The notes beneath the pieces were generated by a model. That model searched no databases. It had not been told where the DNA came from and saw only the letters and a list, made by a program, of their open reading frames with translations. A stretch of 9,656 nucleotides of DNA from a virus (Duplodnaviria > Heunggongvirae > Uroviricota > Caudoviricetes). The stretch lies in IMG/VR virus record IMGVR_UViG_2663762849_000015. One strand, written 5' to 3'. The stretch's first letter is position 1. Each line of letters begins with the position of its first letter. This document shows, in pieces, positions 1 to 5,650 of the stretch. Both the position numbers and the translations under genes were made by a program.

Positions 1-494
1 CCGGGAAACAGCGCACCGTCCGTCTCAGTCGGTGTCGCCAGCACAAACGAGGCCGTCATGGCTGTCAGCTCCGACATCTGCTCCACCACCCAGCGGTCAC
101 TCAGCTCCTGCTCCGGGTCCGCCTCCGGATTGCCCGCAACGAAATTCACCGCATCCAGAAAACGGGCATACACCCGGCGGCGGACCACCGTGGCCCCCAC
201 CAGGCTCTGCAAATCCTCCGCCATTCCGGTGACAAGACCAAACAGATTGGACACCGTCAGCAACGGTCTGGCACTGCTGCCCTTCCCGCTCATCTCAAAA
301 CCGCTACCGTCAATCGGGTATGCCTGATATTGCCGCCCCTGCCAGGTGACCGGCTCCCCTTTTTCATTCAGCTCATTGCAGAAAAAATACCGCTCACCGC
401 CCTGCACCGTCAGGTCGATTTCCCAGAGCACCACCCGCGGTGACTGCTCTGATTTAACCGACTCGTTCAGACTTTCTTCGTGAATATCCTGCAT
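1..494 (-). CDS. L: Minor tail protein L (lambda gpL-like), N-terminal ~164 codons; 3' end lies beyond the window start
   Basis: Not in the ORF track because it runs off the window edge. Hand translation of the minus strand from ATG at 494..492 gives MQDIHEESLNESVKSEQSPRVVLWEIDLTVQGGERYFFCNELNEKGEPVTWQGRQYQAYPIDGSGFEMSGKGSSARPLLTVSNLFGLVTGMAEDLQSLVGATVVRRRVYARFLDAVNFVAGNPEADPEQELSDRWVVEQMSELTAMTASFVLATPTETDGALFP with no stop, closely matching my recollection of lambda gpL (MQDIRQETLNE...VVLWEIDLT...GGERYFFCNE...). Sits downstream of M in lambda gene order. Confidence 0.85.
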   Translation of the reverse strand, partial: MQDIHEESLNESVKSEQSPRVVLWEIDLTVQGGERYFFCNELNEKGEPVTWQGRQYQAYPIDGSGFEMSGKGSSARPLLTVSNLFGLVTGMAEDLQSLVGATVVRRRVYARFLDAVNFVAGNPEADPEQELSDRWVVEQMSELTAMTASFVLATPTETDGALFP

Positions 495-504
495 ATATCC
501 GCCC

Positions 505-530
505 ATAAAAAAGGGGCGCAGACGCGCCCC
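505..530 (-). terminator. Rho-independent terminator ending the porin cassette, immediately upstream of L
   Basis: Plus 513-530 is GGGGCGC-agac-GCGCCCC, a perfect 7-bp GC stem with 4-nt loop. On the minus strand the hairpin is followed directly by TTTTTTAT (plus 505-512 ataaaaaa). About 175 nt downstream of the porin stop and ~12 nt upstream of the L start. Confidence 0.65.
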
Positions 531-625
531 GAACAATAAAAGTCCAATTTAAAATAAAACCAATAAAGGTAATAACAGAAAGTTAAATCAGCACATGCCA
601 GATGGCAATTGCTGATCGCAGTGAC

Positions 626-648
626 CAATGAAAACTGTGTTTTCATTG
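626..648. repeat. Perfect 10-bp inverted repeat with 3-nt spacer (caatgaaaac-tgt-gttttcattg) in the porin 3' region; function unknown
   Basis: Read directly from the sequence: arms 626-635 and 639-648 are exact reverse complements. Lies in the untranslated stretch between the porin stop (704) and the terminator (505-530). Could be an RNA hairpin or a dimeric protein-binding site. Confidence 0.6.
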
Positions 649-703
649 ATACAGGCCGCCTGTAAGGGCAGACGGCCCGTATTTATTAACTTATCAGCAA
701 TAA

Positions 704-1867
704 TCAGAACTGATAAGTCATACCCACAGCAACGATATTATCTGTCGCAACACCGGCTTTCCGGGTAAATTCACTTTCATCAATCAGGTTAATTTTATAA
801 TCAACATAGGTGGACATATTCTTGTTAAAGTAATAAGTCGCTCCGACATCAATATATTTAACCAGATCCTGATCGCCATGGTTCACACCACCAACCATAA
901 CATCCTGTCCGCGGGACTGAAGGTAGGCCAGGGACGGGCGCAGACCAAAATCAAACTGATACTGCAGTACCGCTTCAAAGTTTTGCGCTTTATCTGCAAC
1001 TCCTTTATCACCAAAGGTCGTCAGATTCTGAGTTTCGGAATATGTTGTAGCCAGGTAAAGGTTGTCAGCATCGTATTTTAGTCCGACTCCCCACATCTCA
1101 GCGTGTTTACCTTTTGCAACACTACCGGAATCAACAACGATCTGCTTTTCAGTCACTTTACCGGTTAAAGGATCAGTTTGTTCAATCGTCAGAGTACCAT
1201 TCAGACCTTTTTCCTGATTATTGGTTCGGTCCGCATTAATATATGCGGCAACGATACCAAAACCTTCATATTCATAACTGGCTGAGAAACCGTGACCATC
1301 ACCATTAGCTTTCCGGAGATCACCCCGATCATTTTTACCCTGGTACTGTGCCGCAAAATTCAGGCCATCGACAAGCCCAAAGAAATCTGTATTACGATAG
1401 GTTAATACCCCGGAAGTACGGGCTGTCATGAAGTTATCGGTCTGGGTCCAGCCATCACCGCCAAACTCTGGTAATACGTCAGTATAAGAACCAACATCGT
1501 ACGCAATACCATAGTTACGACCATAATCAATGGTGCCAAACTCACCAAACTTCAGACCTGCAAATGCAAGACGGGTTTTATTACCCGCAGCACCCTCTGA
1601 TTCAGCTTTATTACCAGAGAACTGATATTCCCACTGACCAAAACCAGTCAACTGGTCATTAATCTGAGTTTCACCTTTAAAGCCCAGACGTGCGTATGTC
1701 TTATCTCCATCATCCCCCTTATCACTGGAGAAATAATGGAGTGCAGTTGCACGCCCATACACATCAAGTTTATTGCCATCTTTATTGTATACTTCTGCAG
1801 CCTGCGCCCCCGCTGCAAAAATTACAGCTGCTGCCACAGCTGAAAGTGCCACTGTCATTTTTTTCAT
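704..1867 (-). CDS. Outer membrane general porin, OmpC/OmpF/PhoE family (phage-borne NmpC/Lc/OmpD-like), apparently intact
   Basis: 387-aa ORF with ATG start at 1867 and AAGGA Shine-Dalgarno ~8 nt upstream. N-terminal signal peptide [23 protein letters not shown] followed by [15 protein letters not shown]. Porin hallmarks: [63 protein letters not shown]-terminal ...VAVGMTYQF ending in Phe. Visibly lower GC than the flanking phage genes. Confidence 0.93.
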
Positions 1868-2073
1868 GATTTAATCCTTATTTAAACTGAACTATTCATG
1901 CATAGAGATGTCATGAACAAAACTCAAAATATTGTAAATTAAATTACGGGTTCAATTTTTATTTTGTTTCAAAATGTAAAAAAACAACTTTGATAGCACT
2001 TTATGTCAAGACAAAACAAAAATAACAAGCAAGCAAATTAATAAACGATGCTTTTAGGTTTTTTCTCAAAAAC
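1868..2073 (-). promoter_or_regulatory. AT-rich upstream regulatory region of the porin gene with candidate sigma70 promoter and an OmpR-box-like sequence
   Basis: 206-bp AT-rich non-coding gap between the M stop (2074) and the porin ATG (1867). Minus-strand TTTACATTTTGAAACAAAAT (plus 1961-1980) resembles the OmpR-binding C1 site I recall from ompC (TTTACATTTTGAAACATCTA). Candidate -35 TTGAAC (plus 1950-1955) and -10 TATTTT (plus 1926-1931) with 18-bp spacer; a consensus TTGACA hexamer also at plus 2004-2009. Exact promoter elements are not resolved. Confidence 0.5.
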
Positions 2074-2415
2074 TTATCTTATTACCTGTTCCATCATACA
2101 ACTGAAATCGCTGTACCGGGCGTTATCCGTAACACTCCACTCCCGGCACACCACCCTGACCGTCCGGTTATGTTTCGGGGGCTTCCACAAAAAAGCCCGG
2201 TAACCACCATGCCATGACAGAAACGCGGACAGTGCCTCCCGCTCAGCATCCGTTGTCACCCGAAAAACCACCTGAAAGGTCTTCAGTTGCGCATTCAGTC
2301 CTGCCGGACGACGTTGCTGATAACCGTCGCCAAACTTCACCGTCATCACCGACGGTTTCTCCGTCACCTGCATCCCTTCCCGGGGACACCAGTGAAGGGT
2401 CTTAATCTCATCCAC
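2074..2415 (-). CDS. M: Minor tail protein M (lambda gpM-like)
   Basis: 113 aa; ...IKTLHWCPREGMQVTEKPSVMTVKFGDGYQQRRPAGLNAQLKTFQV...FLWKPP... aligns with my recollection of lambda gpM (MKTFRWKVKPGMDV...VRFGDGYSQRAPAGLNANLKTY...FLWTPP). Start is GTG at 2415 preceded by GGAGG; it overlaps the 3' end of the tape measure gene. Confidence 0.9.
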   Translation of the reverse strand: MDEIKTLHWCPREGMQVTEKPSVMTVKFGDGYQQRRPAGLNAQLKTFQVVFRVTTDAEREALSAFLSWHGGYRAFLWKPPKHNRTVRVVCREWSVTDNARYSDFSCMMEQVIR

Positions 2416-5400
2416 TCAGCATTCCTCCGTCACGACGCATGGATAACATCACCGCCTGTACCCGCTGGTCAATCAGCTGCACAAGACTGCCTGCCGCCTC
2501 CGGCCCTATCTGTCCGTTAGCCCCGTCATTCTGAATGGCGATATGGTAGACCGGGGAATACACCAGACCGGCACTGCCGTTCATACTGCCCACCGCGCGT
2601 ACACCCAGCGAGCCATCCGCCGCCCGGGTCAGGGGCATTATGGCTTCAGGTCCTGCTTCCCCCATCAGCCCGGCCCCTTTTGCAAAGGCAAAGTACGTGG
2701 GCGTATCCACAATACTGTTGCTGTACGCGCTCAGGTTTGCCGAGGTATACACGCCGCCTTTTGCATTGGCCACCGCACCGCCCAGCCAGTCACCAATGCT
2801 GCCAATAAATCCTCCTGCACCGGACATACTGTTTGCCGCCGTCTTAATTCCGTTGACAATCGCGGCATTCATAAGAACTTTTGATATTTCCTGCAGCACT
2901 GATGAGGCCCAGTTGCGCCATTCCACTTTATTCCCGTTCAGCATCTCCGTGATGTTATTCACCATCCCTGAGATACCCTCCGTCGCAAGCTGTGCTGCCT
3001 GTGAGGCGTAATCGGACGCATTATCCACCCAGTTACTGAGCCCCTCCTGCAAGCCTTTCTGCCAGTCCGCACGCTGCACATCCGATTCGGCATAAAAGGC
3101 TGCCTGGTCCTTAAGGCGTTCGCTCAGATACTGCGCGTTCTGTGCCCGTGCCTGTCTGTAAAAATCCTCACTGATATCCCCGGCCTGATACTGAGACTGA
3201 AGGTCCGCATCCTTCTGGCGGAAGCTGTCGCGGATCTGCTGCAACTCCCGCATGCGTTCCCTGGCTCGTTCTCCCTGCCCGTACCCCAGCAGTTCGGCTT
3301 CATTTGATGCACGCGCAGCCACATTATCATTCTTCAGGGTCTCTTCCCGGGATCGCAACTGTTCCCGGATTTTTTGCTGGTCAATCAGGGCCGCGTTACG
3401 CAGCAGTTCCTGCTTCTGCATCTCCGTCAGGGTTTTCAGTTCGCCCTGCGCAGTCTGGTACTTCAGCTTCACCAGCTCTGTATTCTGACCCGCCAGTGCC
3501 AGTTGCTCTTTCTGCTGCTTCAGTAGCCGGGAAAAACTGTCTTCCGCTTTTTCCGTCTCTGATTTTCCACCCCGGGATTTGGGTTTGTTCGCCTCGTTAT
3601 TACGCCAGGCTTCCAGAGCATTACTGATATAACGCTGTCTCGCCTCCTGATACGAATCCCCCACAAAACCAAGGTCATCCGCCGCATACCCCAGCCGGGC
3701 ACGCTCTTTTTCCTCCCCCTTCAGTCGGGACAGGGCCAGCTCACGTTCTGTTTTTGTCAGGGCGCTCTGCTGTTTATCATCCAGGGTGGCCTGCGGCAGC
3801 CGTAACGGTACATTCACCAGTCCCTGACGCTGCTGAAGCAGTTCATTCCCCAGCCCCAGCAGACGGTTGAATTCCGTATGCTGGCCGTTCATGACCAGCA
3901 GTGACTGATACGCTTTATTCTGCTCTGCCGCCTGCTGACGAATTAACGCCACACGGCGATCTTCCAGTCCGGCAAGCACATCCTGAATGGACTGCGCCTT
4001 TTCCTGCATCTGTGCCAGACGGGACTGCTCAACAGCAAGCTGCTCTGTTGCCTGAGCAAGCCCTTCCGTTACAGTTTTCACCGAGGTCAGATGGTTTATC
4101 ATGAATCCGTCACCGGTCGTCCAGCCCGGGTTCGCCAGAACATACTGATATCCTGCGATTTTTTCCTGCAGGGATTTCACCCGACTGGCCTGTTCATCAA
4201 TCAGCCGGTTCTGCTCTGTCAGCGCCGCCCGTGTTCGTCCTTCATTATCTGAGGCTTCAGGCAAAGACATTGACGGCGTTTTATGCGCGATTTCATCTAT
4301 CGTCAGTGCATACTGGCGCGCTGACTCCCTGGCCTGCTCCTGATTCTGGTACAGCGTATACCATGCTGCTGCCCCCAGCATCACCAGTCCGGGTACGCCA
4401 CCAACCAGTCCCAACGCACCAGTCATCAGACGTGAGCCCACCGCCGTTGTACTGTTCAGCGCATTCTGGGCTGCGGTTCTGGCAGCAATATTTCTGTTCA
4501 GGCGTTCCTGTGTGGCCGCCAGACGGGCTTCTGCAGCAATCTGCATCTCCGTCCCGCGGGCTGCCGCCACAGCCTGCTGTGCACGGTACACGGCTGCCCT
4601 TGCCCGCGCCGTGGCAATCTGCGTCCCCCTGAGCTGTGCTTCCGCCAGTGCCACTTCATTACGTGCTGCCGTCACAAGTCCTGCCGTGGCAGACACCGCT
4701 CCGGAGGCCATATTGCCAAAGTACCGGGCAACCCCGACGGCAACCAGCGCCCCCGCTGCTGTTGCCACATTATCAATATTACCGGCAACACCGTTCAGCA
4801 CGCCGGAGAGCGTTTTCGTCGCTCCGCTGGCTTCATTCGCGCCACCCACCCAGGCCATAAAGGCGTTTTCCACCTTTGTGATCCCGTCAGAGACCGTTTC
4901 CGGCATGGCGGCATATTCATCACGCAATACCCCCAGCTGGCTGATTAACGCAGGAACGACTTTATCCGCCGTCAGTTTGCCGTCGTCCGCCATCGCCTTA
5001 AGGTCTTTACGGGCCACGCCCATACCCGCAGCCAGTGCACGTATGATCCGGTCTCCGCTTTCATTGACCGAATTAAATTCCTCACCCCGTAACACACCCT
5101 GTGCCAGCGCCTGGCTGAACTGGGTGATCACCGAGCCCGCCTCTGCCGTACTGGCACCGGAGATTTTCAGCCCCGTGGAAATGGCCTCCGTCACCTTCAG
5201 TACATCACCGGCACTGTAGCCATATTCACGCATTGAGGCTGCCGAGCGGGCAAACAGGGCCGCATTATCTGAAAATGCCGTGCCCGTCCGCTGGCTGATA
5301 TCCATCAGCACTTTCTGTGATGACGAAAATTCATCGGATGACTGCGACGCCTGTTTCAGTCGGGCATTCACGGAACTCCATTCATCGGCCAGAGAAATCA

Positions 5401-5650
5401 GGTGTCCGGTGGCAAAGGCACCTGCAAATGCCCCCGCCGTTCCGGCAGCTGAAGCGCGGATTTCCGTCAACTGGCTGTTCAGCTCAGCCAGGGCGCGTCG
5501 CTGCTCCCGGGCGACTGCGGCAGCCTGACGCCCGCCATTCTGCAGGGTCCGGTAATATTCACTGCCCATGCGGGCAGCCCGCTGGATCTCCGACTGGAAT
5601 GACTGCGAATTTGCCGAAATTTTGATAATCAGTTCACGTAACGTCGCCAT
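2408..5650 (-). CDS. H: Tail length tape measure protein (lambda gpH-like)
   Basis: 1080-aa ORF with ATG at 5650 preceded by GGAGAAAGG. Long Ala/Gln/Glu-rich, predicted coiled-coil sequence with a central hydrophobic Gly-rich segment (LMTGALGLVGGVPGLVMLGAAAWYTLY). Positioned between the G/GT chaperone and M as in lambda. Confidence 0.93.
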   Translation of the reverse strand: MATLRELIIKISANSQSFQSEIQRAARMGSEYYRTLQNGGRQAAAVAREQRRALAELNSQLTEIRASAAGTAGAFAGAFATGHLISLADEWSSVNARLKQASQSSDEFSSSQKVLMDISQRTGTAFSDNAALFARSAASMREYGYSAGDVLKVTEAISTGLKISGASTAEAGSVITQFSQALAQGVLRGEEFNSVNESGDRIIRALAAGMGVARKDLKAMADDGKLTADKVVPALISQLGVLRDEYAAMPETVSDGITKVENAFMAWVGGANEASGATKTLSGVLNGVAGNIDNVATAAGALVAVGVARYFGNMASGAVSATAGLVTAARNEVALAEAQLRGTQIATARARAAVYRAQQAVAAARGTEMQIAAEARLAATQERLNRNIAARTAAQNALNSTTAVGSRLMTGALGLVGGVPGLVMLGAAAWYTLYQNQEQARESARQYALTIDEIAHKTPSMSLPEASDNEGRTRAALTEQNRLIDEQASRVKSLQEKIAGYQYVLANPGWTTGDGFMINHLTSVKTVTEGLAQATEQLAVEQSRLAQMQEKAQSIQDVLAGLEDRRVALIRQQAAEQNKAYQSLLVMNGQHTEFNRLLGLGNELLQQRQGLVNVPLRLPQATLDDKQQSALTKTERELALSRLKGEEKERARLGYAADDLGFVGDSYQEARQRYISNALEAWRNNEANKPKSRGGKSETEKAEDSFSRLLKQQKEQLALAGQNTELVKLKYQTAQGELKTLTEMQKQELLRNAALIDQQKIREQLRSREETLKNDNVAARASNEAELLGYGQGERARERMRELQQIRDSFRQKDADLQSQYQAGDISEDFYRQARAQNAQYLSERLKDQAAFYAESDVQRADWQKGLQEGLSNWVDNASDYASQAAQLATEGISGMVNNITEMLNGNKVEWRNWASSVLQEISKVLMNAAIVNGIKTAANSMSGAGGFIGSIGDWLGGAVANAKGGVYTSANLSAYSNSIVDTPTYFAFAKGAGLMGEAGPEAIMPLTRAADGSLGVRAVGSMNGSAGLVYSPVYHIAIQNDGANGQIGPEAAGSLVQLIDQRVQAVMLSMRRDGGMLSG

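Follow-up and report, generated by a model that had tools for sequence, protein, structure and literature searches.

An OmpR-type box upstream of the porin gene of a tail-module moron in an Escherichia coli prophage

The control region of a porin gene inserted among the tail genes of an E. coli prophage contains a 20-bp element with the appearance of an OmpR site. On balance, we favor the reading that this element, at 1980-1961 on the minus strand, would be a single site for a phosphorylated OmpR dimer that activates the weak sigma-70 promoter of a porin moron. OmpR binding, the start of transcription and the direction of control are what we infer here from a set of observed features: the motif and its statistics, its retention across diverged versions of the region, its spacing from the promoter-like hexamers and the anatomy of the cassette in which it is found.

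All the genes in the window, by which we mean the whole stretch of 9,656 nucleotides that was analyzed, are on the minus strand and represent the tail genes of a lambdoid, HK97/Stx-like prophage whose host is E. coli. The porin gene (704..1867; 387 aa; Pfam Porin_1, E = 1e-140) has as its upstream neighbor a gene for a minor tail protein of the M type (2074..2415; Pfam Phage_min_tail, E = 7e-33), with the tape measure protein encoded at 2408-5650, and the minor tail protein L starts at 494 on its other side. The homology to the moron-less phage Lys8385Vzw, in which the stop of M and the start of L overlap, ends at 494 and restarts at 2084; likewise, the Stx phages match the window only outside 495-2083. 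Because both of these match the two flanks and lack the intervening segment, we identify the porin as the cargo of a moron, a cassette of 1,589 bp (495..2083, minus strand) delimited by homology breaks between the tail genes M and L. Other hallmarks of morons are also seen: presence or absence of the segment between adjacent phage genes; a deviant GC content, namely 24% in the upstream part of the porin (~216-217 nt) and 44% in its coding sequence as against 54% for the window; a terminator-like hairpin, GGGGCGC-GTCT-GCGCCCC followed by TTTTTT (513..530, minus strand), placed just before the start of L; and a weak but conserved, putative promoter-like pair. The 3' part of the cassette additionally shows a 59-aa open reading frame (467-646, minus strand), which spans the terminator-like hairpin into gene L, has no family match and is probably not a gene.

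The porin barely passes the threshold of the NCBIfam OmpC subfamily (496 bits vs. a cut-off of 484), and the identical protein, variously labeled in the databases as 'porin OmpC' or 'outer membrane porin protein from phage origin', is found in 235 E. coli contigs. At a query coverage of at least 80%, the cassette is present in 92 of the 5,426 complete E. coli genomes; it is absent from the 50,697 records of isolated phages, where the only porins are of the nmpC/lc/OmpD type. Our literature search found no prophage-encoded porins in tail modules. The strains NCTC9112 and EC2 have the same upstream region as the window, without a difference. A comparison with L001, the closest copy from a complete genome, indicates that the 3' end of the porin gene is a recombination mosaic: the upstream regions of the two are identical, and all 48 nucleotide and 13 amino-acid differences between the genes are concentrated in the last 260 nt (704-970).

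The OmpR-type box itself (1961..1980) reads TTTACATTTTGAAACAAAAT on the minus strand from 1980 to 1961 and is made up of two 10-bp half-sites, TTTACATTTT-GAAACAAAAT. Relative to the porin ATG (1867-1865), it extends from 113 to 94 nt upstream, bearing out the distance of ~95-113 nt given in an earlier, sequence-only reading of this DNA. That reading had compared the box with the C1 site of ompC, TTTACATTTTGAAACATCTA; K-12 has exactly this sequence ahead of ompC, and the 16/20 match claimed for minus-strand 1961-1980 is exact. We likewise located F1-F4, C2 and C3 in K-12. Among these known sites, the agreement of the box with F2 of ompF is yet closer (17/20), and it matches 13/17 positions of GTTACATTTTGTTACAT, the repeat obtained for E. 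coli OmpR by ChIP-exo (PMC5438342). When the window is scanned with a position weight matrix (PWM) built from the seven K-12 sites (F1-F4 and C1-C3), the box ranks first among its 19,274 20-mers, whether C1 is included or left out, and its score of 13.6 falls within the range of F1, F2 and C1.

To control for chance, we shuffled the upstream region (217 nt, 24% GC) 3,000 times by dinucleotides and compared this score with the maximum of each shuffle. The observed score was reached by 0.03% of the shuffles with all seven sites in the matrix and by 0.7% without C1, and so the significance relative to shuffled AT-rich sequence, which the sequence-only reading had made a touchstone of its proposal, is borne out (P about 0.0003, or 0.007 without C1). 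However, this significance leans on the two strongest known sites: when C1 and F2 are both withdrawn, 23% of the shuffles score as well and it is lost (P = 0.23). Counting mismatches instead of scores, a 20-mer no more than four mismatches from C1 arose in 0.8% of the shuffles, and one equally close to any of the seven sites in 3.9%. Further, the first 16 bases of the box have one exact occurrence in the window and no match in shuffles of the whole window. The box exceeds chance in its AT-rich context at roughly the 1% level. By PWM, none of the upstream regions has a second or third OmpR site, the next-best score being about 4 as against 13.6 for the box. Elsewhere in the window, TTTACCTTTTGCAACA, a near-match to the C1 core with two mismatches, lies antisense within the porin coding sequence (1106-1121, plus strand); it has an expectation of zero in the window shuffles, codes for VAKGK, persists in most versions and is likely to reflect coding constraint together with chance.

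We then have the evidence from diverged versions of the cassette. These were drawn from E. coli genomes with upstream regions 72-78% identical to that of the window and from 30 IMG/VR prophage contigs coding for porins 80-100% identical to the window porin; together, these sources yielded 16 distinct upstream sequences, all in the same position between M and L, one of which (L114) lies behind a different, lambda-like M gene. The box has the top PWM score in 15 of the 16 versions, is 113-118 nt from the ATG in every case, and includes an invariant TTTACAT in all 16. Most versions read TTTACATTTTGTTACAT, which agrees with the ChIP-exo repeat GTTACATTTTGTTACAT at 16/17 positions; more generally, versions other than that of the window match the repeat at 14-16/17 positions, with 11 of the 16 doing so at 15/17 or better, and some of them attain 17/20 to F1. 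In L114, the box is TTTACATTCT-CTTACATTTT, i.e., two TTACAT half-sites 10 bp apart, and the variants seen in the second half-site (GAAACA, GTTACA, GTTGCA and CTTACA) are all within the range of known half-site forms. Most versions also contain TGTTACAT, an exact instance of TGTWACAW, the motif that emerged from OmpR ChIP-seq in Salmonella and that is found twice upstream of ompS1 (PMC3586657); the version in the window, TGAAACAA, has one mismatch to it. Taken over its full length, the box does not exceed the intergenic region in conservation (10/20 invariant columns vs. 42% overall across five lineages; Fisher P = 0.31). Conservation as such does not single out the box; the notable point is the identity of the retained positions, namely TTTACAT, CA in the second half-site, ATTGAA and AATATTTT.

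Between the box and the gene, the hexamers TTGAAC and TATTTT were recovered just as the sequence-only reading had described them, at 1955-1950 and 1931-1926 of the minus strand, with a spacing of exactly 18 bp. The putative -35 (1950..1955) and -10 (1926..1931) each match the respective consensus, TTGACA or TATAAT, at 4/6 positions, with ATTGAA and all six positions of TATTTT being invariant in five lineages; the L114 version has a 2-bp deletion downstream of TTGAA, so that its spacer to TATTTT is 16 bp rather than 18 bp. A gap of 5 bp separates the box from TTGAA(C/T) in each of the 16 versions. The same gap is found in K-12, where F3 ends 5 bp before the -35 of ompF (TAGCGA) and C3 ends 5 bp before that of ompC (TTGGAT), and the starts implied for these two genes are consistent with the distances in the ChIP-exo table. 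As a candidate promoter, the pair has in its favor the invariant -10 and a layout common to the nmpC/lc family, a 69%-identical group of prophage porins; on the other side, it is weak and falls below the threshold of a promoter consensus scan. In a simple sigma-70 model, TTGAAC-18-TATTTT scores ~6 bits and is one of the top two pairs in 9 of the 16 versions (the best in one), with other weak hexamer pairs scoring similarly. Weak hexamers are to be expected of an activator-dependent promoter, though they are not proof of one. The promoter is further supported by homology, as the TTGAA hexamers of nmpC/lc and of the moron are respectively 42 and 43 nt before a shared block, GACATC. The predicted start of transcription (1917..1919, minus strand) would be 7 nt after the -10 and 5 nt before GACATC, equivalent to the 'G' of nmpC/lc. 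With a start near 1919, the box would be at about -61 to -42, both promoter and start being predictions.

We considered and set aside several other arrangements of this region. If TTTACA were itself a -35, every version would be without a -10 at the required 16-18 bp. A triple array like C1-C2-C3 with a promoter further downstream has no acceptable core promoter, would leave a UTR of <20 nt and finds no second or third site by PWM. The consensus TTGACA that the sequence-only reading had placed further upstream is indeed present (2009-2004), but it is not conserved, other versions having TTGTCA or TTAACA, and it has no usable -10 partner, the one available being TGTTTT, which is without the A at position 2. 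This hexamer is included in a partly invariant upstream block, TCTTgacAtAAAGTG (1997..2011, minus strand), which when extended to about 1991 reads TCTTGACATAAAGTG. A second TTTACA (1933-1938, minus strand) follows the first after 42 bp, or four helical turns, and overlaps TACAAT, a good -10 candidate for which no -35 partner was found; it is restricted to the lineage of the window, and in other versions ATTAAA takes its place and TAAAAT that of TACAAT.

Closer to the gene, and 7 nt short of its ATG, lies a Shine-Dalgarno sequence AAGGA (1875..1879, minus strand) that every version shares unchanged. An inverted repeat, GTTCATG-N11-CATGAAT (1894..1918, minus strand), is found where the mRNA is predicted to begin; 8 distinct versions retain its stem, while the loop varies. 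The evidence for it is weak: changes in the stem are one-sided and wobble-compatible (including all four in L114), there are zero two-sided or compensatory changes by which an RNA hairpin might be recognized through covariation, and its folding energy is ordinary (z = -0.26). It could be a stabilizing 5' hairpin or a palindrome that binds a protein. Within the coding sequence, CAGUGGC in porin codons 5-7 (1848-1854, minus strand) complements the 5' seed of RybB, an sRNA that depends on sigma-E. At -20.7 kcal/mol, a value equaled by 0.3% of shuffled targets, the predicted duplex is comparable to those of K-12 nmpC (-21.1) and ompC (-24.4). Pairing of MicF with the 5' region of the porin is no better than with shuffles, and a search of 300-2600 for a micF-like RNA or any other Rfam family returned none at E = 0.1 or better, with no micF match even at E up to 10.

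We advance the following plausible mechanism. A dimer of the phosphorylated OmpR of the host would occupy 1980-1961 and, from about -61 to -42, activate TTGAAC-18-TATTTT, giving a transcript that starts near 1919-1917 with a 5' UTR of ~50 nt. This placement corresponds to that of the promoter-proximal sites F3 and C3, from which OmpR recruits RNA polymerase at the host genes. The osmotic switch of those genes arises from the graded filling of three sites, with a distal site also contributing in the case of ompF. Since the box of the moron is single and strong, no classical switch between low and high osmolarity is expected of it; rather, the porin of the lysogen would depend on OmpR across widely differing levels of OmpR~P. 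In addition, antiterminated late transcription of the kind seen in lambdoid late operons would read through the cassette. The earlier proposal that the porin is wired into EnvZ/OmpR osmoregulation is sustained in part: the strength of the motif, its retention in 16 versions, the 5-bp gap and the nmpC precedent speak for the EnvZ/OmpR connection, whereas osmoregulation over-reaches. Dependence on OmpR is the more defensible claim, as the F1-F3/C1-C3 type of array and the distal site are absent. Counting against the activation reading are the loose specificity of OmpR (PMC3586657), the presence of one site where ompF and ompC have several, and repression by OmpR in the one prophage porin that has been studied. 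Host OmpR probably controls this phage porin, as judged from the sequence features described above.

The nmpC precedent bears on the direction of control. For the K-12 nmpC promoter, CRP is described as the activator and OmpR, IHF and MprA as repressors, and 5'-RACE puts the start at a 'G' (PMC11677980). Seo et al. list nmpC as the one previously characterized OmpR-repressed gene; their ChIP-exo peak spans 576106-576166, and deletion of ompR raised nmpC 2.4-fold (PMC5438342). After shifting their coordinates by +777 (a correction checked on the ompF peak), the peak is at 576883-576943 of NC_000913.3 and covers CTTACATCTTGAAATAATCA, 91-72 nt before the nmpC ATG, which agrees with the window box at 14/20 positions. 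This nmpC/lc box contains TTGAAA, and 18 bp later comes GAATAT and then a G, which is 43 bp from the center of the ChIP-exo peak and 71-73 bp from the center of the CRP site annotated in PA-2. That G would be the mapped start, on the assumption that the printed distance of 43 is not strand-corrected; taken literally, it would place the OmpR peak downstream of the start. If this G is the start, then OmpR would cover the -35 of nmpC and thereby repress it.

Might OmpR bind the box of the moron likewise to repress, with the promoter overlapping the box or lying upstream of it? Besides nmpC being repressed by OmpR and its box CTTACATCTTGAAATAATCA containing the -35-like TTGAAA, the moron versions do offer an overlapping promoter candidate, with TTGAAA or TTGTTA in the second half-site as the -35 and CGTAAT, AAGAAT or CAGAAT as the -10, and TTGTT(G/A)-18-CAGAAT is among the four best pairs in L006, L007, L111, L112 and L113. 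However, the alternative -10 in the window is CGTAAT, which is without the essential A at position 2, and the arrangement is absent from L114; the upstream TTGACA has neither a -10 partner nor conservation; and the invariant 5-bp gap to TTGAA, together with the invariant TATTTT, fits the geometry of activation. We hence regard repression as unlikely. A further rival, which we regard as unlikely to a similar degree, sees in the box either an inherited relic or some generic AT-rich element, akin to an UP element or a stretch bound by H-NS, with no specific regulator, so that the porin would be constitutive or silenced. The 24% GC of the upstream region, the A-rich tract just upstream of the -35, the absence of box conservation above background and the weak similarity to the ompC-micF intergenic region and to 5' blocks of nmpC, which would accord with descent from an older porin control region, are all compatible with it. 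Against this stand the rarity of comparable matches in shuffles that preserve the AT-richness, the fact that diverged versions shift towards the OmpR consensus rather than away from it, and the identity of the kept positions, TTTACA and ACA, which are those that confer specificity.

The other rival retains a specific regulator but exchanges its identity: the box would mainly be a CpxR site and the porin would respond to envelope stress, in place of EnvZ/OmpR or alongside it. The motif of CpxR has the form GTAAA-N5-6-GTAAA (PMC9600279), to which the plus strand offers GTTTC-N5-GTAAA in the window and GTAAC-N5-GTAAA in most versions, amounting to 7/10 matches in the window, 8/10 in the L006 type and 9/10 in the L004 type and L114, with the invariant TTTAC being a perfect half-site. 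Moreover, ompF and ompC are both listed as co-regulated by CpxR (PMC5438342, supplementary table 3). Yet genuine OmpR sites are equally similar to this motif (F1 at 9/10 and C1 at 7/10, on reading in reverse), and both the orientation of the box and its 5-bp gap copy the proximal OmpR sites. Because C1 and F1 resemble the CpxR motif to the same degree, the sequence does not of itself discriminate between the two regulators; we consider a mainly CpxR-bound box quite improbable, while dual control by OmpR and CpxR, as at ompF and ompC, is possible. We continue here with activation by OmpR as our preferred reading.

The provenance of this control region can be partly traced. A chromosomal donor was not recovered: with one genome per species, the nearest porins are 63-69% identical and of the OmpD/NmpC type (63-67% for the OmpD-type porins), with upstream regions of the OmpD type that have no such box within 400 nt, boxes of this kind being found only upstream of true ompC orthologs, at -162 to -197. 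Over a 29-nt block that takes in 1997-2011 and continues past it, identity to part of the K-12 ompC-micF intergenic region is 86% (E about 0.001, the database being small), and on the plus strand 1997-2011 resembles the MarA/SoxS/Rob box upstream of micF. Direct derivation from ompC-micF was set aside, as the similarity is weak and local (E 0.001-0.01 in a 40-kb database). The region looks like a compacted and diverged porin control region of the ompC/nmpC kind, from which it may descend. As a separate observation, the chromosomal OmpD-type porins of Citrobacter, Enterobacter and Salmonella (L009-L019 and L021) have a conserved TGAAACTTATTATTGAA(A/C) ~100-120 nt upstream, which comprises two OmpR-like half-sites ~10 bp apart and lies downstream of a CRP-like GATCACAC.

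A broader reading, which we offer tentatively and hold at less than an even chance, would see the moron as a complete host-style cassette: a single activating OmpR site of consensus strength, a 5'-terminal stem-loop and a RybB target in codons 5-7, such that the porin would be made with OmpR~P and removed under sigma-E stress, the OmpR logic being opposite to that of nmpC. Were this the case, prophage porins would have become wired to one and the same host regulator in different ways, and a possible gain would be the displacement of OmpC and OmpF as phage receptors under the very conditions in which those are made. More narrowly, a functional site would mean that the main porin regulator of the host governs one more general porin, supplied by a widespread E. 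coli prophage, and the outer-membrane permeability, antibiotic uptake and phage-receptor display of the lysogen would change in a condition-dependent manner. It would also provide, beside nmpC, a second and differently wired example of acquired envelope genes joining a resident two-component system. This would be no new class of mechanism, since OmpR-controlled porin promoters, including one on a prophage, are already known.

Placed beside known systems, the control region recalls ompF and ompC in its 20-bp tandem half-sites, a site ending 5 bp before a poor -35 and a general porin downstream. It differs in having one site, with no distal F4-type site found, where those genes have three contiguous sites; in that its proximal site is strong, whereas the proximal F3 and C3 are the weakest matches; in the shorter 5' UTR (~50 nt vs. 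81-110 nt); and in the absence of a divergent partner such as the micF of ompC-micF. With the OmpR-dependent quiescent porins of Salmonella, ompS1 and ompS2, most of the moron versions share an exact TGTWACAW, from which the window version departs by one mismatch; unlike the moron, these genes are chromosomal and have several OmpR sites. The morons of the lambdoid phages, a concept that comes from HK97 and HK022 and is exemplified by bor and lom of lambda, similarly feature a supernumerary gene that brings promoter-like and terminator-like signals of its own, a deviant base composition and a precise insertion between genes that abut in related phages; the distinction here is in the cargo, a full-size general porin with a putative operator for a host two-component system.

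The closest relatives in kind are nmpC of the cryptic prophage DLP12 and lc of phage PA-2, which are also porins on lambdoid prophages and which share with the moron the 5' blocks GACATC and AATAGTTCA and the promoter layout TTGAA(A/C)-18-hexamer, to which nmpC adds the RybB seed complement CAGUGGC in codons 5-7. Their proteins are only 69% identical to the moron porin, their genes are lodged between Q and the lysis genes (quuD-essD for nmpC) rather than between the tail genes M and L, and they have an annotated CRP site, of which none is evident upstream of the moron porin. As to the direction of control, the nmpC box overlaps the -35 and OmpR represses, whereas that of the moron is 17 bp further upstream and ends 5 bp before TTGAAC, in what would be an activating register. 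Thus, OmpR control of a prophage porin is already known for nmpC, and the porin moron would be a second, differently wired candidate.
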